Shown: positions 3,060 through 64,000 of the stretch, piece after piece
Numbering within the stretch: position 1 is the first letter of the stretch
Layout of the letters: every line of letters begins with the position of its first letter
Source of the DNA: Acidobacteriaceae bacterium
GTDB lineage: Bacteria; Acidobacteriota; Terriglobia; Terriglobales; Acidobacteriaceae
NCBI GenBank assembly: GCA_035505395.1
Contig: DATJQW010000001.1
Location: forward strand, 644-64,643
Direction of reading: 5' to 3'
Length of the DNA stretch: 64,000 nt
Notes under the pieces: generated by a model
Seen by the model: only the letters and a program-made list of their open reading frames with translations
Told to the model about the DNA's origin: nothing
Databases searched by the model: none
Translations under genes and position numbers: made by a program

Positions 3060-3992
3060 GTGGTTCGCGTGCTCCGAAGTACGGCGCAATCCACACTCAA
3101 CAGCTTTTCCGCTGTACTCTTCCCCGCCGATTGCCGCGTCTGCGGCGTCCCGCTCGGCAGCTTCTCCCTTCTTCCCGTCTGTGCGTCCTGCTGGAATCAT
3201 CTTCCTCCACAACCGGGCACGCTCTGCGACCGATGCGGCGAGGCGTTGTCGTACGAACCTGATCTCACCACTGAAAAATCGCTCTGCCGCCCCTGCCGCA
3301 CGTCGGCACCGCCCTTCGAGAAGGCTGTCGCTTGGGGCCTCTACCGCGATGAACTGCGCGCCCTGCTCCACCTGTTGAAATACGACGGCATGCACCCCTT
3401 GGCGAAGCGCCTGGGCGCGCTCCTCGCCGATCCGGTACTCGCCATCTCTGATCTGCCCGCTGAGCTGGTCGTCGTGCCCGTTCCGCTCTTTGCCGGCAAG
3501 CGCCGCCAGCGCGGCTTCAACCAGTCGGAGCTCATCGCGCGTCATGCGATCCGTGCTCTCCGCCACCGCCGCACCGATCTGAACGTGCACCTGGCTCTCG
3601 ATGTCCTCGGACGTCACCGCGCCACGGAAAGCCAGGCCGGCCTCACCGCGCATCAGCGGCGCGAGAATCTCCGCGGCGCGTTCGTCGCGGCGCGCCCCGC
3701 GGCCGTTGCAGGGCTCCATGTGCTGCTCATCGACGACATTTACACCACCGGCGCCACGGCTCGCGCCTGCTCGCAGGCTCTTCGACGCGCCGGAGCCGCC
3801 AGCGTCTGCGTCGCGACCGTCGCTCGCGCGCAGAAAGAACAATGGCCGCACCGGGATTCGGCACAGCAGCACTTCGCTGCGCCCGAGATTCCTATGGAAA
3901 GGGATTTTGCTTTTTGGGATGAGGCCCGTACGGAGACCCTCCGTGGGCGCCTGAACAACAACTGGTCCGGACCGGCAATCCGGACCCGATAG
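3060..3992 (+). CDS. ComF-family protein (phosphoribosyltransferase domain)
   Basis: N-terminal Cys pairs CRVCG...CASCW and the PRTase motif VLLIDDIYTTGATA. GTG start. Confidence 0.85.
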   Translation: MVRVLRSTAQSTLNSFSAVLFPADCRVCGVPLGSFSLLPVCASCWNHLPPQPGTLCDRCGEALSYEPDLTTEKSLCRPCRTSAPPFEKAVAWGLYRDELRALLHLLKYDGMHPLAKRLGALLADPVLAISDLPAELVVVPVPLFAGKRRQRGFNQSELIARHAIRALRHRRTDLNVHLALDVLGRHRATESQAGLTAHQRRENLRGAFVAARPAAVAGLHVLLIDDIYTTGATARACSQALRRAGAASVCVATVARAQKEQWPHRDSAQQHFAAPEIPMERDFAFWDEARTETLRGRLNNNWSGPAIRTR

Positions 3993-4004
3993 CCGGGAGG
4001 ACAG

Positions 4005-4622
4005 ATGTCGGTCGCGAAGGCTGGTGTTCACGCCCGCAGACAATCGGCGGGTAAACCTCAGGATGCACGCAGCAACGACGCCGTGTGCGTCGTCACTACC
4101 GTTCAGGCCCTGCAGACTCCGGTGCTGGTGCTCAACGCTTCCTACGAGCCCATCAATATCTGCGGAGCACGCCGCGCTCTGGTCCTCGTCCTCAAGGGCG
4201 TCGCGCGCACCGAAGAGGAGCAGGGCTCCGAGCTGCACTCCGCCCGCGCGCGCATGGCCATGCCCTCAGTCATCCGCCTGCTTGAGTACCGCCGCATCCC
4301 CCATCAGACCCGCGCCCTCTCGCGCAAGAACATCCTGCTGCGCGATCGCAACAGCTGCCAGTACTGCGGCGTCATCCTGCCCTCCGCCGAGCTTACCCTC
4401 GACCACGTCCTGCCCCGCTCCCGCGGCGGACTCTCCACCTGGGAGAACCTCGTCGCCGCCTGCCACTCCTGCAACCGCCGCAAGGGCAATCACCTGCTCA
4501 GCGAAATCGATCACATGAGGCTGATCCGCGAGCCGCGCCCCTTCACCCTCCACACCAGCCGCCACATCATGCGCATGATCGGCCACTCCGACCTGAAGTG
4601 GCGCAAGTACCTCTACTACTAA
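4005..4622 (+). CDS. HNH endonuclease
   Basis: [11 protein letters not shown]-domain, then CQYCG...[10 protein letters not shown]...N...[10 protein letters not shown] (HNH/Cys4). GGGAGGA Shine-Dalgarno at 3995-4001. Confidence 0.85.
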
Positions 4623-4802
4623 CTCGTCTTACCCGCCGATGCCCGGCTTTCTGCAACCCACGACCTCGATACTCCGGCCCTCGGGTGCTTTGCCCTGTTC
4701 TCACCCGTTGAGGCTGGGATCGGTAAGCATCACCCAACTCACCGGTACGGTCCGGCCTCAGTGAGCGCATCGGCGATTTCGCGCTCACCGAGATCCGCCG
4801 AA

Positions 4803-5534
4803 TCAGATGGCCGACATGCCGCCGTCGACAGACAGCTCCACCCCATTCACGAAGCTCGAATCGTCGGAAGCAAGAAACAGCGCAACCGTCGCAATTTCCT
4901 CAGGACGACCGATCTTTCCCCGCGGGATCAGCGATTGGAACATCTTCTTTGTCTCCTCGTCGATTCGCTGAGAATCCGGTGTGTCGATCACCCCCGGGCT
5001 CAGCACGTTCACGCGGATATTCCTGCCCTTTAGTTCGTTGAGCCATGTGCGTGCGAAGGAGCGCAAAGCCGCCTTGCTCGCCGAATACGCGCCGAAACCA
5101 GGAAACCCTTTCACCGAAGCAACGGATCCGGTCATGAAGATCGATCCGCCATCGCGGAACAGCGGCAACGCCTTCTGCACCGTAAACAGCGTGCCGCGCG
5201 TGTTCAGGCCGAAGGCCGCATCGAAGTGCTCCTCGGTAATCTCGCCGAGTTGGGCGGCTTCGCCCTTGCCGGCGCTCGCAAACAGGACGTCGATCCTGCC
5301 CTTTTCCCTCCTGACCGTATCGAACAGGCGGTCAAGGTCGTCCAGATTGGACGCGTCCCCGCGCACACCGGTCACGTTCCGGCCGATCACCTTCACGGCC
5401 TCATCGAGCGCCTTCTGCCTCCGGCCGGTGATGAACACATAGGCGCCTTCTTCAACGAACCGCCTGGCGCTGGCCAGCGCCATGCCGCTCGACCCACCCG
5501 TGATGACTGCAACCTTACCCTCAAGCTTTCCCAT
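4803..5534 (-). CDS. SDR-family oxidoreductase
   Basis: TGGSSGMALA Rossmann motif and catalytic YSASK. Track ORF trimmed to MGKLEGKVAVITGG (Met at 5534). Confidence 0.85.
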   Translation of the reverse strand: MGKLEGKVAVITGGSSGMALASARRFVEEGAYVFITGRRQKALDEAVKVIGRNVTGVRGDASNLDDLDRLFDTVRREKGRIDVLFASAGKGEAAQLGEITEEHFDAAFGLNTRGTLFTVQKALPLFRDGGSIFMTGSVASVKGFPGFGAYSASKAALRSFARTWLNELKGRNIRVNVLSPGVIDTPDSQRIDEETKKMFQSLIPRGKIGRPEEIATVALFLASDDSSFVNGVELSVDGGMSAI

Positions 5535-5646
5535 AACTGCCCCCTTCGGTAGCATTCCGTACAGAAGAGTAGATTTCTCTGGTGATGGACGAGAACTGCT
5601 CGCGAGTCCTGATCTTTTGTCTGTTCGTCCAAAGGAGGAGGCTGCG

Positions 5647-6675
5647 TTGGACCCGATCACCGACATCTTCCGAACCATGCACGTAACCGCTTTCGGTCAC
5701 CACAGGCTCGAAGCCACCGCCCCGTGGGGCCTGACCGGCGGCGGGCGGACCGAAGAAAAAGTCGCGCCTTCCGGCAAAAACACTCCACCCGCAGACTTGG
5801 CGCACTTCGCCATGCTTGCGCGCGGTAACTGCTGGCTGAGCGTGGAAGGGATTCCCGAGCCGATTCCCCTCACCGGGGGTGATTGCATTTTGCTGGCCCG
5901 CGAGACTTCGATTGTGTTGCGCGACAGTCTGCGAACGCGTCCGAGGTCGAGTTTCCGTGAGGTCGCGGCCACAGCCAGCAGCAATGTCGCCCACTATGGA
6001 GGCGGCGGCGCTCCGACAACCATCGTCTGCGGGTCCCTGAGTTTCGATCGCGCCAGCCTGAAGCCGGTTACGCAGTTATTGCCGAGCTTCATTCTGATCA
6101 AGGCCGATCAGGCGCAGACGCTGGCTCTTCACACCACCATGCAGGCGCTGGCGTCGGAAATGGCGGAACAGGCGCCGGGATCGGAAGTCGTCGCGACCCG
6201 GCTGGGCGAGGTTCTGTTTATTCAGGCGCTTCGGGCGCATATCGCGTCGGGAGCGGGATGGCGCAACCAGGGATGGCTGCGTGCGATCTTCGATCCTCAG
6301 ATGGGCTCTGCCCTGCGTGCCGTTCACGACAGTGTGCATGCACCCTGGACGGTCGAATCCCTGGCCGAAACGGCGGGCATGTCCCGCTCCGCATTCGCAG
6401 CGCGTTTTAAAGAGCTGCTCGGACAAACACCGCTGGAATACGTCACCGAGTGGCGAATGCAGAAGGCGATGCCGTTACTCGAACAGCGTGACAAAAAGCT
6501 GATTGACGTTGCTCGATCGGTCGGTTATGAGTCCGACGCCGCGTTCAGTAAGGCGTTCAAGCGAGTGGTCGGAGCCAGCCCTGGTGAATACCTCAAACGT
6601 GGCTTTGAAGACCAGGGTCATGCCGGAATTGACGCGAGCCGCAGGCGTTCGACGACAAAAGAAGCCATAAGCTGA
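5647..6675 (+). CDS. AraC-family transcriptional regulator (cupin N-domain)
   Basis: C-terminal HTH SLAETAGMSRSAFAARFKELLGQTPLEYVTEWRMQKA. N-terminus LDPITDIFRTMHV resembles cupin-AraC starts, so I use the in-frame TTG at 5647. Divergent from the SDR gene. Confidence 0.8.
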   Translation: MDPITDIFRTMHVTAFGHHRLEATAPWGLTGGGRTEEKVAPSGKNTPPADLAHFAMLARGNCWLSVEGIPEPIPLTGGDCILLARETSIVLRDSLRTRPRSSFREVAATASSNVAHYGGGGAPTTIVCGSLSFDRASLKPVTQLLPSFILIKADQAQTLALHTTMQALASEMAEQAPGSEVVATRLGEVLFIQALRAHIASGAGWRNQGWLRAIFDPQMGSALRAVHDSVHAPWTVESLAETAGMSRSAFAARFKELLGQTPLEYVTEWRMQKAMPLLEQRDKKLIDVARSVGYESDAAFSKAFKRVVGASPGEYLKRGFEDQGHAGIDASRRRSTTKEAIS

Positions 6676-6786
6676 CGATACGTCTCAAGATGTCTTTGGG
6701 CGGTCGGTCAGTGTGGAGGGATTTCCGGCCAAAGGCCGCTCGCCTGTTGCCTTCACGCCAAATCACTCATCGAAGTCCTTTGCCCC

Positions 6787-7671
6787 TCACTGCACCACCG
6801 TCGCGCCCGGCTGCTGCACCGCCTCCGCGTGGAACTTCTTGTAGTCGCTGTCTGTCACCCGCACGTTCGCCCGCACCCCCACCACCGCGAACGCATGCGC
6901 CGTCACAAAAATCTCCGCGCTCGTCGGCAGCCACAGCTCGTTGTTCACCAGTTTCTGGTCAAACACCAGGTTGCTCCCTTTGCTCAGCGAGAACATTCCA
7001 AAGCCCACGTGAAAATTCTCGTCCAGCCGCGCCGTCAGCCGCCGCACCTCGCGGTCCTGCTCGTCGATCCACACCGTCCCCGACATCTTCCGCGCCGCCT
7101 CTTCCGCCACTCCATGCGCCTTCGCATGCGGGTCACCCGTGAAGTCAAACGCAATCGTCGGCCGCCCGTCCAGCGTCACGCGCCGCGGGCTCGACACCCG
7201 CGCCATCGCCAGAATACGGCTCACGCTCACCACCACCTCGCCCGACGGAGCCTGTCCCGGCGGCGTCTTCTGCGCCCTCTCGATCGCCTTCATCACCCGG
7301 CCCTGCTCTTTTTGCTGCTCCTCCGCGCTGAGCGCTTTGCCATCCCTTTCCACCAGCCGCCGCACCTCGTGCGTGTTCACATAGAAGACCTCGTACGTCT
7401 CCGACTCCGTCTTCTTCACGCTCCCGTTCTTGTTCAGTTCGTCGGTCACGTCCGTTTCGCGATAGGTGTAGTTTTCCTGGATCGCGTCCATCTGTTGCTG
7501 GTGCGCCCGCACCTGCGCCATCAGCGTGGGCACGTCCGGCAGCGGACCGGTCTGCGCAGCCGCCGTCCCCGCCCAAACAATTACCCCCAGCGCCGCGACC
7601 CACCCTCTCCGGCACGAAAAAGCGCCCGAAATCGCTGCCCCATACAACATGTTTTCCTGCAAACGGATCAT
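6787..7671 (-). CDS. exported hypothetical protein
   Basis: Signal-peptide-like N-terminus ending WAGTAAAQ and high GC3 coding pattern. No catalytic motif recognised. The alternative start at 7650 has the better AGGA spacing. Confidence 0.6.
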   Translation of the reverse strand: MIRLQENMLYGAAISGAFSCRRGWVAALGVIVWAGTAAAQTGPLPDVPTLMAQVRAHQQQMDAIQENYTYRETDVTDELNKNGSVKKTESETYEVFYVNTHEVRRLVERDGKALSAEEQQKEQGRVMKAIERAQKTPPGQAPSGEVVVSVSRILAMARVSSPRRVTLDGRPTIAFDFTGDPHAKAHGVAEEAARKMSGTVWIDEQDREVRRLTARLDENFHVGFGMFSLSKGSNLVFDQKLVNNELWLPTSAEIFVTAHAFAVVGVRANVRVTDSDYKKFHAEAVQQPGATVVQ

Positions 7672-56920: not shown

Positions 56921-57880
56921 GTGCGCCATGTCGTTTTCGCAGTCTTTGCCGCAGCCTGCCTCGCAGGACTCGCCGCTGCCCAGCAGCCCGCACCCCCGCC
57001 CGCTGCGGAGCCCGCTCCAGCTGTCGCGCCCATCTCGCTCGCGAGCGTCGAGATGCAGGGAGTCACGCTCTCCGGCTACATTTTCGTCAGGGACGGGCGC
57101 GCCATCGTCGGCAACGACACCTCCATCACTGCCGGCGGTCAAACCGCGCACGTTGCGCTCACCCGCGGCGGCTCGCTCGACGTTTGCGCTACCACCAAAA
57201 TCCACCTCGCCACGGACAACACCACTGTCGGCGGCGCGCTGATGTTCGCTCTCGACCGCGGAGCCTTCGAGGCTCACTACACCCCCGGCCAGTACTCCGA
57301 CGTGATCCTCACCCCCGACCTCCGCATCCTCATCTCGCCGCCCGGGCAGGCCGACCTCAGCCTGCGAGTGAACCAGCAGGGCGACACCTGCATCGACAAC
57401 CACGGCGACAACGCCCCCTACGTCACTGCGTCCAGCCTCTTTTCCGGCGGCGCCTACCGCATCCAGCCGAACCAGCGCGTGCTCTTCGAGCACGGCAGCA
57501 TCAACGAAGTCGTCGACACCGAGCAGGAGCCCTGCGGCTGCCCCTCCTCGCCGCCGCAATCCGTTGCCGCAGCGCCGGCCGCGCCGTCGAGCCACCGCCA
57601 AACGGCTGCCTCGGCAGCTGCGCAGAACCCCTTCCCGCTCGCCACCAGCGAAGGCCTCGCGCCGACTCCGCCGCCGCCGACCACCCCGGTCGTTCCACCG
57701 GGGCAGACTCATGCCGAAGTGCAGGTCCCGATCGTCTACAACGCCAATAACCCCGCACCGGCTCCGCCGCCGACAGCCGCGTCGAGCGCCGCACCCACTC
57801 CCGCGCCTCAGCCCAAACCCCACCGCGGCTTCTTCGGCCACATCGGACACTTCTTCGCGCGGATCTTCGGGGGAAAGTAA
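56921..57880 (+). CDS. exported hypothetical protein with Pro-rich C-terminus
   Basis: Signal peptide VRHVVFAVFAAACLAGLAAAQQ (GTG start) and Pro/Ala-rich segments at both ends. Confidence 0.6.
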   Translation: MRHVVFAVFAAACLAGLAAAQQPAPPPAAEPAPAVAPISLASVEMQGVTLSGYIFVRDGRAIVGNDTSITAGGQTAHVALTRGGSLDVCATTKIHLATDNTTVGGALMFALDRGAFEAHYTPGQYSDVILTPDLRILISPPGQADLSLRVNQQGDTCIDNHGDNAPYVTASSLFSGGAYRIQPNQRVLFEHGSINEVVDTEQEPCGCPSSPPQSVAAAPAAPSSHRQTAASAAAQNPFPLATSEGLAPTPPPPTTPVVPPGQTHAEVQVPIVYNANNPAPAPPPTAASSAAPTPAPQPKPHRGFFGHIGHFFARIFGGK

Positions 57881-58060: not shown

Positions 58061-58621
58061 ATGGCGATTCCCGCCACCCAGATGCGCCCGGGCATGGTCA
58101 TTAAGCACAACAACGACCTTCACCTCGTCTTCTCCGTGGAGCACCGCACCCCCGGCAACCTGCGCGCCTTCATCCAGGCCAAGCTGCGCAACATCCGCAC
58201 CGGCGCCATGTTCGTGGAGCGCTTCCGCTCCCCCGACCCCATCGAGCGCGTCATCGTCGACGAAATCCCCATGGAGTTCCTCTACAACGACGGCGACGAC
58301 TACTACTTCATGAACACCGAGAACTACGAGCAGACTCACCTGAAGCGCGACACCCTCGGCGACGCGGTCGAGTACCTCACCGCCAATCTGCAGATCAGGG
58401 TCTCGTTCCACGATGGCGTCCCGGTGGGCATCGAGCTGCCCCAGACCGTCGAGCTCACCGTCGTCGAGACCGAGCCTGGCCTCAAATCCGCGACGGCCTC
58501 CTCGGTCACCAAGCCGGCCAAGCTCGAAACGGGACTGGTCGTGCAGGTCCCCCCCTTCATCAACGAAGGCGAACGCATCCGCGTGGATACGGCCGAAGGG
58601 GCCTACCTGAGCCGGGCATAG
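58061..58621 (+). CDS. efp: elongation factor P
   Basis: Full-length EF-P pattern (...AKLRNIRTG..., ...VVETEPGLKSATASSVTKPAKLETG..., ...IRVDTAEGAYLSRA). AAGGAG Shine-Dalgarno. Trimmed to the Met at 58061. Confidence 0.95.
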   Translation: MAIPATQMRPGMVIKHNNDLHLVFSVEHRTPGNLRAFIQAKLRNIRTGAMFVERFRSPDPIERVIVDEIPMEFLYNDGDDYYFMNTENYEQTHLKRDTLGDAVEYLTANLQIRVSFHDGVPVGIELPQTVELTVVETEPGLKSATASSVTKPAKLETGLVVQVPPFINEGERIRVDTAEGAYLSRA

Positions 58622-58650
58622 CGTAGCTAAGCCGGCCGACCTCGACCTGA

Positions 58651-59265
58651 TTTCTCCGCCCACGCAGGCGCTGGCGCGGGGCACAAGGAACTCCGTTCGC
58701 GCCCTTCATTGGGCCTATCGCGGCATTGCTGCTGATCGCATTCGGGGCAGCGGCAGCGAGCATCTGCTTCAACGCTGTGAATCGATTGCCCATGGTTGCA
58801 GGATGGGATCGCCTGCTGCCGGCCTGGCTGAGCCGCCTGCATCCGCGCTTCAGAACACCGGTTGGGTCCATCGTTGCGGTTTCCCTGGCCACCTTCGCGC
58901 TGACGCTCTTCGGCAACTTCGGCGTGGGTGCGCAGGAGGCATTTCAGTTTCTGAACAACGAAGCCATCATCTGCTGGGCACTGGCTTATCTGGTGATGTT
59001 CGACATTCCGCTTCTCGCGCGGGGCGAAAAGCCCGCGCCGGGTGTCCGTCTGGCGGCTGTTTCGGGCGCCATCATGACGCCTCTTTACGTTGTTCTTTCG
59101 TTGTTCCCGATCGTCGATGTTCGCAACCCGGCGTCGTTCACAGCCAGAGTCATCACGGTGATCCTCGTCATCAACGGAGCCGGGGCGCTGTATTTCCGGC
59201 ATGCGGCGAGGCAGAGACGGCTGACGTTATTGCCGAGTGATGTGCCGGAAATTCCGGGAGGGTGA
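58651..59265 (+). pseudogene. C-terminal remnant of an APC-family amino-acid permease
   Basis: The frame opens 30 nt after the efp stop and encodes only the last ~200 aa of an APC permease (NAVNRLPMVAGWDRLLPAWLSRLHPRFRTPVGSIV..., then 4 TM helices and a basic tail). The N-terminal ~280 aa are absent. Confidence 0.65.
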
Positions 59266-59476
59266 CTGGCAGCGCAGGGCTCCCAGGCTGGGCCGCTCGG
59301 GAAACGTGAATTGAGCTAAATCCGACAACTCAGGGACTGCCGCACCGAGGCGGCTCACTCAAAAGCCGACTTACCTGAATCAATCTGAATTCGCCGCACA
59401 AAGACTCAAGGTGTCGGGTTTCATAGATATAAGTTGTTTCGACGAAAGCGGCGGAATGACGGGCGAGAATAAGTTC

Positions 59477-59505
59477 TTGACAATCCGACTCGCGAACACC
59501 AGAAT
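59477..59505 (+). promoter_or_regulatory. candidate promoter of the orphan two-gene cassette
   Basis: TTGACA (59477-59482), 17 nt spacer, CAGAAT (59500-59505), in an AT-rich spacer. Confidence 0.45.
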
Positions 59506-59595
59506 AACTGCCACCCAAATCGCAGAGCACCCCGGAGCTGCCGCGGTGCTTGCTGTTATCTAAGCCAATCTGAATGTCCAGCGAGGAGCGCGCGT

Positions 59596-61128
59596 ATGAA
59601 CACCGCCGCAGTTCCCGTCGGCCCTGGCACTGACCAGCAAAGCATTCCTTCAACCACAAGTACGGGTGGGGAAGCCTATAAGTATGCGGAAACGACCCGC
59701 CTGCTCTGCGCCGCCGCCTGGCTCGACAGCGGTTTTCGCAACACTGTTCTGAAGTGGTACCACGAGGACAACCGCCATCGAGCCACGGCTCCGAATTTCG
59801 GGGTCGATATGGCCACGGTGGTGCGGCAATGTGCTCGCGCCCGCTCCGCCCTCAATAGCCGTGAGGCGTGGCTGCTGATTCCCGTAGTGCTGGCCCTTCT
59901 CGCGCTGGCTGCCGCTCCGGTGCCCGGACTGGTGCTGGTGTATCTGGTGGGTTTCGCTATCTGCCTCGTTTACACCTCGCGGGCGCGCTCGGTCGCGACC
60001 AAGCATTTCATGCGCGGCAAGTTCAATCCCGATGCGCTGCTCAGCCAGGACCAGACGACCAGCGTCTCGCTGCGCGAAGCCGAAGCGGGTAATTGCCTGG
60101 TCTACAGCGGATTCACTCCATTTGTCGGTTCGGGCGAGAACATTGGCGGATGGTCCTTCGCCCTGGATCTCCGCAAGCGTGCCGACGGGAGCGGGGGCCT
60201 GCCCGCTCGCGATTCAAGTCAGACGGTAGTGGTCATGAACGGCCAACCGGGCGAGCGCATCAGCCTCGCCGATCTCTACGATCGCATCAATCGGGACATC
60301 GGCGACCTGCACCTCGACCGCGTTTTCATCGACGACAAGCTTTACATCAACGGCCGCGACATCCGTACCGATCAGCGCTTCCTGGGCGATCCGCTGGCGT
60401 GTCCGCGCAACCGTGTCACTCCCGAGGTGATGCAGCAGGCGATGCTCGAGCAGACAGAACAGAAGCTGCGCCATTACCGCTGCATCCGCGTAGTCGACTG
60501 GAATGGCGAGCAGGTGCTCTCCATCTTCCTCCGCTTCAGCAGGCTCAGTCACAACCTCTTCGTCGAGGCAAGCTACTTTCTGCTGACGCCGGTCGGCGAC
60601 CGCTTCCGCAAGATTGACTCGCTCGATTCGAGAATGACCTTCCGCCGCGCATGCGAGACAACGCTGCGGGCTGCCGTTGCGGCCCCATTCCTTACGGTGT
60701 GGGCGCCGTTCGCCCTGCTGCAGCGCGTGATGGAGATCCTCCAGGCATCCTCGAGGCGCGGACATGAAGAGAAGCTGATTCTCGACGACCCCAGCTTCGA
60801 CTACGGCGCCGCGCTGTCATGCCGCCAGTGGGCCAGCCCAAACCTCTACCGCCGCTACTTTCAGAAGCTGGACAAGGAGATGTACTTCAAGGTCCTCGAG
60901 AAGAACGTGCTCGACTCCATCCTGACGTTCCTCGAGGAGAACAATGTCGACGTCAGCGAACTGAAGCAGCGCCAGGCCACGATCCTCAACAATGGCGTCA
61001 TCGTCTCCGGCGGATCGATGACGACCGAGAACCTGGCGGTGGGAGAAGGCGCGAAAGTGGACAACCTCAAACAGAAAGTGACGAATATCGCGGCCCGCAG
61101 TGCAACGACGGGGAAGCGGGCCAGCTGA
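59596..61128 (+). CDS. hypothetical membrane-associated protein (2-TM hairpin plus ~370-aa unknown domain)
   Basis: GAGGAG Shine-Dalgarno. 510 aa with hydrophobic hairpin LLIPVVLALLALAAAPVPGLVLVYLVGFAICLVY. No family recognised. The C-terminal peptide NNGVIVSGGSMTTENLAVGEGA is shared with the next gene. Confidence 0.65.
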   Translation: MNTAAVPVGPGTDQQSIPSTTSTGGEAYKYAETTRLLCAAAWLDSGFRNTVLKWYHEDNRHRATAPNFGVDMATVVRQCARARSALNSREAWLLIPVVLALLALAAAPVPGLVLVYLVGFAICLVYTSRARSVATKHFMRGKFNPDALLSQDQTTSVSLREAEAGNCLVYSGFTPFVGSGENIGGWSFALDLRKRADGSGGLPARDSSQTVVVMNGQPGERISLADLYDRINRDIGDLHLDRVFIDDKLYINGRDIRTDQRFLGDPLACPRNRVTPEVMQQAMLEQTEQKLRHYRCIRVVDWNGEQVLSIFLRFSRLSHNLFVEASYFLLTPVGDRFRKIDSLDSRMTFRRACETTLRAAVAAPFLTVWAPFALLQRVMEILQASSRRGHEEKLILDDPSFDYGAALSCRQWASPNLYRRYFQKLDKEMYFKVLEKNVLDSILTFLEENNVDVSELKQRQATILNNGVIVSGGSMTTENLAVGEGAKVDNLKQKVTNIAARSATTGKRAS

Positions 61129-61140
61129 CGGAGGTGAAGT

Positions 61141-61509
61141 GTGCCGCAGGCAGCCAACAATCAGGGCGTGATCGTCTCAGGTGGCTCGTTCACCGCTACG
61201 AACGTGGCTACCGGAACAGGAGCTGCGATCCATACATCCGCGGCAGCTCCTTCTCCCGAACTCGATGCAGTCCGGGAACAGCTTGCGGCGCTGATGAAGG
61301 CGCTCGACGATCACGCCCAGGCACTGCAGAACCCCGCCGAAGTGAAGGAGTCGGCGCGGGTGATGGCTGCGGAACTGGAGAAGCCGAAGCCCAACCGTAT
61401 AACCCTCAACGGAGTATTGAGCGGAATCGCGCAATCGGTGAAGTCGGTCAGCGTGCTTGCGACAGCCGCCGAGGGATTGAAGATCGCTTTAGCCGCACTG
61501 TTCGCGTGA
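61141..61509 (+). CDS. small hypothetical protein sharing an N-terminal peptide with the tail of the upstream gene
   Basis: GTG start 5 nt after GGAGGT (61130-61135). 122 aa with N-terminus NNQGVIVSGGSFTATNVATGTGA, then helical-looking sequence and a hydrophobic tail. Confidence 0.6.
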   Translation: MPQAANNQGVIVSGGSFTATNVATGTGAAIHTSAAAPSPELDAVREQLAALMKALDDHAQALQNPAEVKESARVMAAELEKPKPNRITLNGVLSGIAQSVKSVSVLATAAEGLKIALAALFA

Positions 61510-61766
61510 TCTGCCGATTCCGAGTGCGGCACTCCGCCGGGCTCCGCACCCGACGCTGTAAAGCTCCGATTGAGCGTCCGCCCAGTTGCCAGGATGACTC
61601 TCGGAAAACGGCCCCGGTCCGGCAATCTCCTGCGGGACGTCAGCGAACGCCAAATCGCCGAGTCATAAGCTGATTGCCGAGCGATGGGAAGGTGGCGCGA
61701 TGAGCGGTCACGCCTGCATGCGACGGTCGTTCGTCGGGCAGGCGCTGCGACCCGGGCGGATGTCCC

Positions 61767-64000
61767 CTATTCCATACGCAGCGCCTGGGTCGGGTTGATG
61801 GAGGCGGCGCGGCGGGCGGGAATCCAGACGGCGACCAGGGCGACCAGGGCCAGCAGGATCGGCACCAGGGTAAACGTGGCCGCATCGTGCGGCGCAATGC
61901 CGTAGAGGAAGCTGGACGCGATCTTCGCCAGCATCCACGCGGCGGGCCAGCCCAGTGCCATCGCTGCGAGGGTCAGCGCCATGCCCCGGCGCAGGACAAT
62001 CCGCAATACCGCTGCCGGCTGCGCACCCAGAGCCATACGGATGCCGATCTCGCGCGTACGCCGAGCGACTGCGAAGTTCATCACGCCGTACAGGCCCACG
62101 GTGGCCAGCACCAGTCCAATTCCGCCGAAAACCCCAAACAGCATGGCGGCCACCCGGGGCAGCACGTAAGCTGCGCGCACGTGCTCATCCATGGTTTCGA
62201 GGTTGTAGACGGCCATGGCCGGGTCCAGCCGGTGCACTTCGCGCCGGAGCGCATCGGCGATCCCGGACGGATTGCCTCGTGTGCGCACGATCAGGGTGTA
62301 CCCCATCATGGATGGGTCGTTGGCGATGCTCTGATCGAGCGAGCGGTAAAGCACGGCGCGAGTGTCTTCGCCAATGGTCCGGGATTTGACGTTTCCGACG
62401 ACGCCAACGATCTGGTAGGTCGAGCCGCCGCCGTCGACACGCTGTCCGATCGGATTGGCTGATCCAAACAAGCGGTCGGCGAAGACTTTGTTCACCACTG
62501 CAACGCGAGGTCCGGTGGCGGTTTCGTGGCTGAAGTCGCGCCCCTCCAGGCGCGGCATGCCCAGCGCGTCGAAATAGCCGGGAGTCACCATGTAGAGATC
62601 CGCGGGGGAAGACGGATCGCCTTTCCCGGAGTGCCCGCTCACCGAGAAAGTGTCGCTGCGGTTGCCGCCGGAGAGCGGGGCCACGTCGGTGCAGACCGCC
62701 ATCTGGACGCCGGGCAGGGCGGCTGCGCGTTCGCGCAACTGGGCGAGAAAGGCGCTGATTTTGGCGGGCGAGTAGCCGTTCAGGCGCGGGTCCACCGACA
62801 AGAGGAAAACTCCGCGGGTGTCGAAGCCGATGTCGATGCGCGACGCGCTCTGGAGACTGCGGAGGAAGAGGCCGTTGACCGAGAGGAGGATGAGGGCCAT
62901 GGCGATCTGCGCCACGACCAGCAGATTGCGGGCGCTGAGACGACGGCCGGGGGCGGCGAAACCGGTCTCTCCTTTGAGCGCGTTTGCAATTCCGGGACGC
63001 GAAGCCGCCCAGGCGGGGGCGAGTCCCAGGAACAATCCGCAGAGCACGCTGAGGAGGAACGTGTAGGCGAGCGTACGGCCGTCGATGTCGACGCGCAGAT
63101 CGAGCGGGATGGGCGCCGGCATGCGGAGCGACGACAGCGCTGCGGTGGACCACAACGACAGCAGCGCCCCCATGGCCCCGCCGGCCAGGCCCAGCAGCAG
63201 ACTCTCCATCAGCAACAGGCGGAGCAACCGGCCGCGCGTAGCGCCGAGAGCCAGCCTCACCGCCATTTCGCGCTGGCGGTTGATAGCCTGGGCAAAGAGC
63301 AGGTTGGCCACATTGAAGCCCGCGATGGCCAGCAGCAGCAGAACGACAATCGAGAGCGCGCTGAGGAAGAGCAGCGTCATGCGCCGTACGAAAGGCGGCA
63401 AGGACCCCGCCTGCTCGAATACGAAGTGGTTGCCCTTGTCGGTGGCGGGATAACTCGCAGCCAGCCGAGCGGCGATGGTGCTCAGTTGCGCAGCCACTTC
63501 GTTACGGGTGACGCCGGGTCGAACGCGGCCGATGACCGAGAGCCAGTGATAGTCGCGCGAGTCGCGCGGAGGCAGGTTGGCCGCGAGTTGCGGGGTCAGG
63601 CCGAGCGGAACCCAGAACTCCGCGTCGATGATCTGGTCGATGCTGTGAAAGGCAGCCGGTGCAATTCCGGTCACCGTGAAGGTGTGTCCGGACAGGATCA
63701 CGGTGCTGCCGATGATGCTCCTGTCACCGTTGAAGCGGCGCCTCCACAGCCGTTCGCTGAGCACAACCACAGGCTTGTCGCTATCGGAATCTGAGAAGCC
63801 TGCGCCCATGACCATGGGCAGCTCGGCCACGCGAAAGAAGTTGGGAGTGACCCCCTGGCCCCAGACGCGCTCCGGCTCCGAGCCTCCGCTGATGGAGGCC
63901 GGGATCAGATCGAAATACGCGGCAACGCCGGAAAACACGGCCGCCTGGCTGCGAACGTCGGTATACACCGGCCACGGAAACTGATTGCAGCAGCGGTCGC
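61767..64000 (-). CDS. ADOP-family duplicated FtsX/MacB-type permease (5' end beyond the right edge)
   Basis: Two FtsX modules; C-terminus ...WIPARRAASINPTQALRME parallels ...WLPALRAASIDPTEALRTE of the 33625-36357 paralogue. The frame stays open upstream of the GTG at 63968 to the window edge. Confidence 0.85.
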   Translation of the reverse strand, partial: DRCCNQFPWPVYTDVRSQAAVFSGVAAYFDLIPASISGGSEPERVWGQGVTPNFFRVAELPMVMGAGFSDSDSDKPVVVLSERLWRRRFNGDRSIIGSTVILSGHTFTVTGIAPAAFHSIDQIIDAEFWVPLGLTPQLAANLPPRDSRDYHWLSVIGRVRPGVTRNEVAAQLSTIAARLAASYPATDKGNHFVFEQAGSLPPFVRRMTLLFLSALSIVVLLLLAIAGFNVANLLFAQAINRQREMAVRLALGATRGRLLRLLLMESLLLGLAGGAMGALLSLWSTAALSSLRMPAPIPLDLRVDIDGRTLAYTFLLSVLCGLFLGLAPAWAASRPGIANALKGETGFAAPGRRLSARNLLVVAQIAMALILLSVNGLFLRSLQSASRIDIGFDTRGVFLLSVDPRLNGYSPAKISAFLAQLRERAAALPGVQMAVCTDVAPLSGGNRSDTFSVSGHSGKGDPSSPADLYMVTPGYFDALGMPRLEGRDFSHETATGPRVAVVNKVFADRLFGSANPIGQRVDGGGSTYQIVGVVGNVKSRTIGEDTRAVLYRSLDQSIANDPSMMGYTLIVRTRGNPSGIADALRREVHRLDPAMAVYNLETMDEHVRAAYVLPRVAAMLFGVFGGIGLVLATVGLYGVMNFAVARRTREIGIRMALGAQPAAVLRIVLRRGMALTLAAMALGWPAAWMLAKIASSFLYGIAPHDAATFTLVPILLALVALVAVWIPARRAASINPTQALRME

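Follow-up and report, generated by a model that had tools for sequence, protein, structure and literature searches.

Why should the end of one protein and the beginning of the protein encoded next to it carry the same peptide? The question is raised by a two-gene cassette in a 64-kb stretch of an Acidobacteriaceae genome (contig DATJQW010000001.1), hereafter the window, to the whole of which the open reading frame (ORF) positions and the six-frame motif search refer; all cassette features described below lie on the forward strand. Gene A (59596-61128, ATG start, TGA stop codon at 61126-61128) encodes 510 residues belonging to an unnamed family and predicted to form a membrane-anchored sensor or platform. 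Gene B (61141-61509, GTG start) encodes 122 residues, a predicted effector in which an N-terminal copy of the shared peptide precedes a four-helix bundle. The two genes are separated by 12 nucleotides, and a GGAGGT Shine-Dalgarno sequence (61130-61135) can be read 5 nucleotides ahead of the GTG at 61141; both details had been given correctly in an original prediction that drew attention to the pair. On balance, we favor the reading that A is the sensor and B the effector of one conflict module, which would probably serve immunity or regulated cell death and in which the two proteins communicate through homotypic, probably amyloid-like, pairing of the peptide they have in common.

The copy of the peptide in A spans residues 463-487 (ILNNGVIVSGGSMTTENLAVGEGAK; 60982-61056) and the copy in B spans residues 5-29 (ANNQGVIVSGGSFTATNVATGTGAA; 61153-61227). 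They are identical at 15 of 25 positions without gaps and at 16 of 22 with one single-residue gap, the latter being the count reported at first. A motif profile run against all six frames of the window matched these two places only (E-values 1.6e-14 for A and 2.6e-12 for B; the next best was 0.21), with one peptide copy per protein. The Smith-Waterman (SW) score of the A tail against B was 76, and the runner-up among 75 nearby ORFs reached 41. Within a 21-residue core, 14 residues are identical, 8 of these 14 are specified by different codons, and nucleotide identity is 41/63; as had been observed, four of the eight codons of GVIVSGGS differ at the third position. This abundance of synonymous differences indicates that the likeness is maintained at the protein level, and it bears out the claim that the peptide is conserved rather than freshly duplicated.

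The cassette had been called an orphan, a description that does not hold, as both genes have many homologs. A word-index search recovered more than 280 homologs of A, and 2,466 cluster representatives passed E ≤ 1e-3 (1,288 passed 1e-30) in an exhaustive profile search. Relatives detected in a genome scan belong to at least 10 phyla (Acidobacteriota, Chloroflexota, Actinomycetota, Cyanobacteriota, Pseudomonadota, Bacteroidota, Nitrospinota, Thermodesulfobacteriota, Gemmatimonadota and Armatimonadota), with a patchy distribution that includes many non-filamentous lineages. B has 12 close homologs, and a homologous partner adjoins A in most loci. Co-occurrence of the two had been set beforehand as a test of the pairing. 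Among 156 surveyed loci in which the 3′ end of A is intact, the adjacent ORF was the best match to the last 75 residues of A in 140, and the SW score was ≥50 in 124 of these 140. The partner usually begins 4-13 nucleotides downstream of A. In the cyanobacterial loci L002, L014, L016, L040 and L057, it lies upstream of A instead, about 95 nucleotides away in one clade and on the opposite strand in L057, so translational coupling is not obligatory.

The position of the peptide is the same in all loci, at the C-terminus of A and the N-terminus of the partner. The motif N-x-G-[VI]-[IV]-x-x-G-G-x5-N-[LV]-A-V-G-x-x-A is kept in A across at least 10 phyla and also in the partners, which places its conservation, on both sides of the pair, well beyond this genome; N465, G467, G472 and G483 of the A peptide are invariant among 71 homologs. 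No conserved third gene was seen in the A-partner loci. When the word index was searched for other architectures with a 42-column motif profile, 40 candidates yielded only two short matches. In two loci the arrangement is broken. In L031 (Fischerella muscicola PCC 7414, 5680-5760), a frameshift inside the motif disrupts the leader peptide of a CHAT partner, and in L058 (Dictyobacter kobayashii), A ends within its own motif at about 5335 and no partner was found. Both are possibly decaying copies or assembly errors.

The peptides of a pair resemble each other more than they resemble those of other pairs. Across 30 ungapped pairs, cognate identity was 12.1 of 28 residues versus 10.5 for non-cognate combinations, a value reached by none of 20,000 permutations. 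Across 40 non-redundant pairs, the SW score was 66 for cognate and 42 for non-cognate peptides, and the cognate ranked first in 35% of cases, against an expectation of 2.5%. The test is informative because cognate peptides would show no excess similarity if the copies had simply evolved independently since an ancient duplication. The most divergent loci show the same matching. L077 has GATFHGGRHSFSGSTFGSGDINN on both genes, with 23 of 23 residues identical, and L070 has the matched motif VHIGGSVGGSFSWGNNVVQ on one gene and VHIGGSVGGNFSIGDNVTQ on the other. Further unrelated motifs, each matched within its pair, occur in L065 and L068; L062 and L063 show a V-to-F change on both genes, and L047 and L059 have matched variants. 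Judging from these alignments, the peptide is replaced on both genes together in some lineages.

At the DNA level, the two peptide copies of L077 (4901-4969 and 5092-5160) are identical at 66 of 69 nucleotides, and those of L065 (4802-4870 and 4933-5001) at 56 of 69. Such likeness suggests that, in these two loci, the 3′ end of A and the 5′ end of the partner gene were recently copied from one another or underwent gene conversion. Elsewhere, identical residues often use different codons, not only in the window but also in L062 (9 of 14) and L044 (8 of 13). Near-identical DNA in some loci, together with abundant synonymous differences in others, indicates that the peptide is occasionally re-copied and is also under purifying selection over the long term.

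What stands behind the leader peptide varies among partners. A B-type helical domain is present in 67 of 91 unique complete partners (~74%); the remaining partners keep the leader and have a different domain behind it. TIR_2 domains were found in L015, L029, L043, L047, L102, L120, L124, L131 and L132, with E-values down to 1e-25 (L102, L120 and L132 were assigned through near-identity to the scanned L015 and L124 and not scanned separately). CHAT domains occur in L019, L031, L044 and L059, and TIR domains of the CAP12/Pycsar type (CAP12-PCTIR, E-values of about 1e-25 to 1e-27) in L065 and L068. A PNP_UDP_1 domain (L077, E-value 2e-22), an alpha/beta-hydrolase (DUF7379/Abhydrolase_6, L050), EAD1 (L049), EAD11 (L042) and TCAD2 (L152) complete the set; L152 is also counted among the 67, the B-type profile covering its helical domain too. 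Behind its leader, the B protein of the window has the helical bundle only. This repertoire is that of prokaryotic nucleotide-binding leucine-rich repeat (NLR)-type and other conflict systems and of amyloid-signaling pairs; effectors reported beside amyloid signaling motifs include TIR, CHAT and alpha/beta-hydrolase domains (Dyrka et al., 2020, bioRxiv 10.1101/2020.01.06.895854). Since the variable side carries the effectors, A is most simply a constant upstream sensor or platform. The idea that the pair might be a membrane-associated conflict system is strengthened by these swaps, and we hold a conflict or immune role to be likely.

The composition of the peptide also deserves attention. G (3.7-fold), N (3.0-fold), V (1.6-fold) and I (1.5-fold) are enriched, with V/A/I at 1.5-fold, and P (0.08-fold), L (0.37-fold) and K (0.74-fold) are depleted. 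Published bacterial amyloid signaling sequences (BASS) are rich in Q, N, G, V and I and poor in K, P and L (Dyrka et al., 2020). In the AlphaFold2 models, the predicted local distance difference test score (pLDDT) of A is below 50 across residues 471-487, which predicts a flexible or disordered tail, and the B peptide is modeled as three short low-confidence strands. Peptide length, composition, disorder in the models, co-evolution, linkage and effector types together favor homotypic amyloid-like templating, and these same criteria served to define bacterial and fungal amyloid signaling motifs (Dyrka et al., 2020). Direct peptide-mediated coupling of A and B is, in our assessment, highly probable, and the earlier proposal of a two-component module held together by the peptide gains support from both linkage and co-evolution. 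Whether the peptide acts by true amyloid templating we regard as evenly poised.

A has no family match in Pfam, NCBIfam or PADLOC, and Pfam and NCBIfam reveal no NTPase in A or elsewhere in the cassette. A sequence-profile search of PDB with A gave no matches, and a Foldseek search of its model against PDB gave nothing significant, although START/Bet v 1-like folds recurred among the non-significant matches. The AlphaFold2 model (pLDDT 83.7, predicted template modeling score 0.82) comprises an N-terminal helical domain, a hairpin, an alpha/beta core, a long helix, a helical C-terminal domain and the flexible peptide tail. In detail, the N-terminal domain (residues 25-88, 59668-59859; model helices at 25-86) is recognizable by the conserved columns ETTRxLCAAAxLD...HC..A.R, with R35, L37, C38, A39, A41, F47, G69, C79 and A82 invariant or nearly so. 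The hydrophobic hairpin, which had been noted before, lies at residues 91-128 (59866-59979; model helices 94-106 and 108-137) and appears to be transmembrane; its 19-residue Kyte-Doolittle mean reaches 2.6 (family mean 2.2), and positive charges are plentiful on either side of it. The alpha/beta core (residues 154-330, 60055-60585) contains the motif GNxVxYSGFxPFVGSGxxIGGWSF, its strands between residues 167 and 329 are modeled with pLDDT >90, and N166, G172, P175, F176, G178, G180, W186, S187, R292, Y294, W302, F311 and L330 are invariant. A second, weaker hydrophobic helix (residues 355-378, 60658-60729, Kyte-Doolittle mean 1.6), possibly membrane-associated, lies within the long helix 349-397, between positively charged flanks.

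The hairpin predicts that A is anchored in the inner membrane. Given the positive charges around every hydrophobic segment and the cytoplasmic nature of TIR, CHAT and PNP partners, we infer that the body and the tail of A are cytoplasmic. Two cysteines of the N-terminal domain, C38 (59707-59709, in YLCAAA) and C79 (59830-59832, in HC..A), are almost invariant across the family and could form a metal or redox site with a part in sensing. The A module reaches the C-terminus of the protein in all representatives listed, and some homologs carry N-terminal additions, which are either FHA domains or multi-pass hydrophobic stretches of about 300 residues. Such FHA domains or ~300-residue extensions were seen in P0155, P0234 and similar proteins (740-870 residues) and in P0136, P0149, P0150, P0153 and P0218; the multi-pass hydrophobic sequence was read in two of them (P0155 and P0234), and the four extensions scanned had no Pfam match. 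This suggests that differing N-terminal input modules feed one output tail. In L054 (Caldilineaceae), two tandem A paralogs (3090-4568 and 4599-6524) are followed by a single partner (6528-7004) that begins SNQGIIVGKGGQMNSGPTAVG; each paralog has its own C-terminal peptide, and the second has an additional N-terminal hydrophobic region.

Behind its peptide, B is modeled as a four-helix bundle (residues 39-121, 61255-61503) that is distantly similar to DUF5955 (PF19380), a family with no known function. Helices 39-61, 65-79, 86-100 and 104-121 have pLDDT values of 85-90 (74 for the whole model), and the last, at 103-121, is hydrophobic (Kyte-Doolittle mean 1.7). Residues 38-117 align to positions 5-84 of the 88 positions of the DUF5955 model with 18.3 bits and an E-value of 0.003, below the gathering cut-off of 27.1; 12 of 24 diverse homologs matched DUF5955 at E ≤ 0.01, the best with 5.8e-6. 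With A unmatched and B sub-threshold, the view that neither protein belongs to a characterized housekeeping family has stood. A literature search for DUF5955 found no paper, within incomplete literature coverage. B and three of the five partner homologs tested (L075, L028 and L060) also match the C-terminal third of PDC-M14B weakly (E-values 4e-5 to 7e-3). Membership in the PADLOC system PDC-M14 was rejected, as A and five A homologs were unmatched and the B side matched weakly and in that C-terminal third only. The weak PDC-M14B matches and the TCAD2 partner of L152 raise the idea that the B bundle, as an effector or adaptor module, may be put to use repeatedly. Foldseek of the B model against PDB returned generic or designed helical bundles only (E > 0.6), and a PDB sequence-profile search returned designed coiled coils only. 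B does not show the layout of pore-forming domains of the Bell, Bab or HeLo type, in which an N-terminal hydrophobic helix precedes a helical bundle; its hydrophobic helix is C-terminal, and no PDB fold matched significantly.

In the mechanism that we infer, which extends to direct peptide contact, its amyloid nature, the direction of signaling, the trigger and the role in defense, a membrane-linked trigger would cluster A molecules; in some relatives, an N-terminal FHA domain or additional transmembrane segments would sense this trigger. The clustered A tails would then stack as a cross-beta, amyloid-like nucleus of the HET-s/BASS type, and this nucleus would template the matching B peptide, so that B is concentrated and activated. 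For the B of the window, the likely action would be membrane attack. Partners in relatives would act by TIR, CHAT, PNP_UDP or hydrolase activity, or would recruit further effectors through EAD/TCAD adaptors.

Several known systems resemble the pair in part. Among them are the Bell/NLR pairs with BASS1-10 (Dyrka et al., 2020), which also consist of adjacent collinear genes with very short gaps, share a motif of about 25 residues that is rich in G, N, V and I, poor in P and L and closer within than between pairs, and have a small helical effector whose place may be taken by TIR, CHAT or an alpha/beta-hydrolase. They differ in polarity, as their motif lies at the effector C-terminus and the N-terminus of an NB-ARC/NACHT NLR, whereas here it lies at the effector N-terminus and the C-terminus of A. 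Their receptor is an NLR of the STAND (signal transduction ATPases with numerous domains) NTPase class with repeats, whereas A is a membrane protein without NTPase or repeats, and the A family, unlike these pairs, ranges over many non-filamentous lineages. Bab/Agp, an Escherichia coli abortive infection system with BASS11 (Ibarlosa et al., 2024, bioRxiv 10.1101/2024.11.07.622273), is likewise a two-gene module with a non-NLR sensor, a helical effector of about 110 residues with one hydrophobic terminal helix, and a shared amyloid motif that is found also with TIR, CHAT and EAD domains. In Bab, however, the hydrophobic helix is N-terminal and the motif C-terminal, of which B is the mirror image.

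HET-s/NWD2 of Podospora anserina (PMC13506858) offers the parallel of a receptor motif that templates the same motif on a membrane-targeting helical effector, with beta-solenoid-like spacing of G/N turns. It differs in being fungal, in its NLR receptor, in its opposite polarity and in an effector with two pseudo-repeats, compared with one copy per protein here. The NTP-dependent conflict systems with EAD and TCAD domains (Kaur et al., 2020, eLife, PMC7159879) similarly use homotypic adaptors to join a constant core to swap-in effectors, and their EAD1, EAD11 and TCAD2 domains occur behind the shared peptide in some partners only. Those systems rely on STAND, MoxR or other NTPases and on folded alpha-helical adaptors, whereas the present one uses a short beta-prone peptide and no NTPase, and their description mentions neither amyloid nor an A-type membrane protein. 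Finally, the B bundle aligns to nearly the full DUF5955 model and to part of PDC-M14B, at sub-threshold or weakly significant scores. A review of August 2026 (PMC13506858) describes only the known arrangement, and we found no description of the present architecture in the amyloid-signaling and EAD literature, of which our coverage was incomplete. Relative to Bell/NLR, Bab/Agp and HET-s/NWD2, the new elements are the mirrored polarity, a membrane receptor free of NTPase and two protein families without a name.

A number of observations weigh against an amyloid-coupled conflict module. Its polarity is the mirror image of every described amyloid-signaling pair, and Q, which is abundant in published BASS, is barely enriched in the peptide (1.15-fold). 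A has no NTPase or other known oligomerization engine, its fold matches no solved structure, and it is absent from PADLOC; its sensor role is deduced solely from the partners being effectors. The B bundle is without a significant structural relative, and no likeness to the Bell, Bab or HeLo pore-formers was found. The neighbors of the cassette in the window are housekeeping genes with no visible defense island, and a scan of viral contigs found no A relatives. Moreover, a single one-to-one beta-strand zipper explains the co-evolution equally well.

This last point defines the main rival, which we consider possible though unlikely: the peptides would form a short one-to-one beta-zipper by which the effector is tethered to A at the membrane. 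A would then be an antitoxin-like guard that keeps the effector inactive until a trigger sets it free, or simply a recruiter that brings it to where it acts, with no amyloid or prion-like polymer. Tight co-evolution and adjacency are what any obligate heterodimer interface would produce, A lacks an obvious oligomerization engine, and AlphaFold2 gives the peptide no confident structure. However, instead of complementing each other, the two sides are near-identical, and they are sometimes re-copied, as in L077; for this pattern, homotypic in-register stacking is a better fit than a hetero-interface. The G/N/V/I-rich, P/L-poor composition and the length of about 25 residues match amyloid signaling sequences, and TIR and CHAT effectors are generally activated by oligomerization.

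Quite improbable, in comparison, is a housekeeping or stress-related membrane complex without a conflict role, such as an envelope-stress sensor with a small regulatory subunit. The housekeeping neighbors would suit it, as would the commonest type of partner (74%), a small helical protein without enzymatic signature, and the FHA domains on some A proteins, which are typical of Ser/Thr signaling. It does not account for the replacement of the partner by TIR, CHAT, CAP12-TIR, PNP_UDP, hydrolase and EAD/TCAD domains, and it sits poorly with the patchy distribution, with a nearest relative in a different genomic context and with the weak recurrence of the B bundle in PDC-M14B, a phage-defense candidate.

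The original prediction had left room for common recognition by a third party. In such a scheme, a protease, chaperone or export machine would read the peptide and take A and its partners as substrates in parallel; alternatively, A would assist the export of partners that are polymorphic toxins. A conserved N-terminal leader ahead of variable enzymatic domains does recall polymorphic toxins, and A is a membrane protein. Yet the peptide diverges radically across lineages and still changes in step within each pair, which is hard to reconcile with a conserved reader and on which ground we rejected the scheme as very unlikely; the loci show no conserved third gene and no evident signal peptide or immunity gene pattern, EAD1, EAD11 and TCAD2 serve conflict systems as adaptor domains inside the cell, and TIR, CHAT and PNP partners make sense only with a cytoplasmic A tail. 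A functionless remnant of a recent local DNA duplication, which the nearly identical copies of L077 and L065 might recall, is practically out of the question and was rejected, given the many synonymous differences in the window and most other loci and the retention of the motif on both genes across at least 10 phyla.

The surroundings of the cassette bear on whether it is mobile. The unit of upstream region, gene A and gene B (59325-61523) is 89% identical in nucleotides to L006 3727-5928, from an Acidobacteriaceae metagenome-assembled genome, and is kept there as a block. The flanks show no similarity over 3.6-4 kb on each side, and one flanking protein is unrelated. That the closest relative keeps the cassette conserved in another genomic setting, between unrelated flanks, suggests mobility. 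A 14-nucleotide direct repeat, ATTGCCGAG(T/C)GATG, flanks the cassette at 59229-59242 and 61673-61686 (13 of 14 positions identical). The copies are spaced by 2,444 nucleotides, and by a rough estimate chance alone would give about one such match in 3.4 kb, so the repeat alone is no evidence of insertion. A plasmid search found two chromosome-sized actinobacterial replicons, and the match that was opened (H1) had no annotation beneath it. On L079 (Ga0335072_10006693, a 16.8-kb metagenome contig), an A protein encoded at 482-2011 is 100% identical to that of the window; this contig is presumably from the same or a near-identical genome as the source of the window.

Other claims about these surroundings were also checked. 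The promoter-like site TTGACA-17 nt-CAGAAT (59477-59505) is real as a consensus match only; it agrees at 10 of 12 positions and is the sole sigma-70-like match in 59100-61800, where shuffled sequences give an expectation of 0.4. Of the AT-rich pocket, the dip in GC content exists, but it is modest (0.56 at 59200-59800 versus 0.61-0.69 around). The reported efp gene and MacB/FtsX (ADOP-type) permease are indeed neighbors, along with a glutamine amidotransferase (GATase) and a MerR regulator. The ORF at 58726-59265 (179 residues), described at first as a decayed permease, has no Pfam match at E ≤ 0.001. An ORF of 319 residues (56921-57880), hydrophobic at its N-terminus and rich in Pro and Ala in its C-terminal half, also has no Pfam match, and an Rfam scan of 58600-61900 gave no match.

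More tentatively, A could be the founding member of a large family of NTPase-free membrane immune sensors that use prion-like C-terminal templating to engage interchangeable death effectors, in mirror image to the known pairs, in at least 10 phyla including unicellular forms, and out of sight of NLR-centered screens. If the proposed coupling is true, amyloid-type signaling would reach beyond the NLR/Bell pairs of filamentous bacteria and a single system of E. coli and would take in a membrane sensor family of about 2,500 clusters in many phyla, and the coupling peptide could occupy either end of either partner. The pair would then be a new candidate defense system with a new sensor fold, and it would provide a possible function for the DUF5955-like helical domain. 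The unrelated but pair-matched peptides of L077, L070, L065 and L068 would form a natural series of orthogonal specificities in which to study how templating specificity is encoded.

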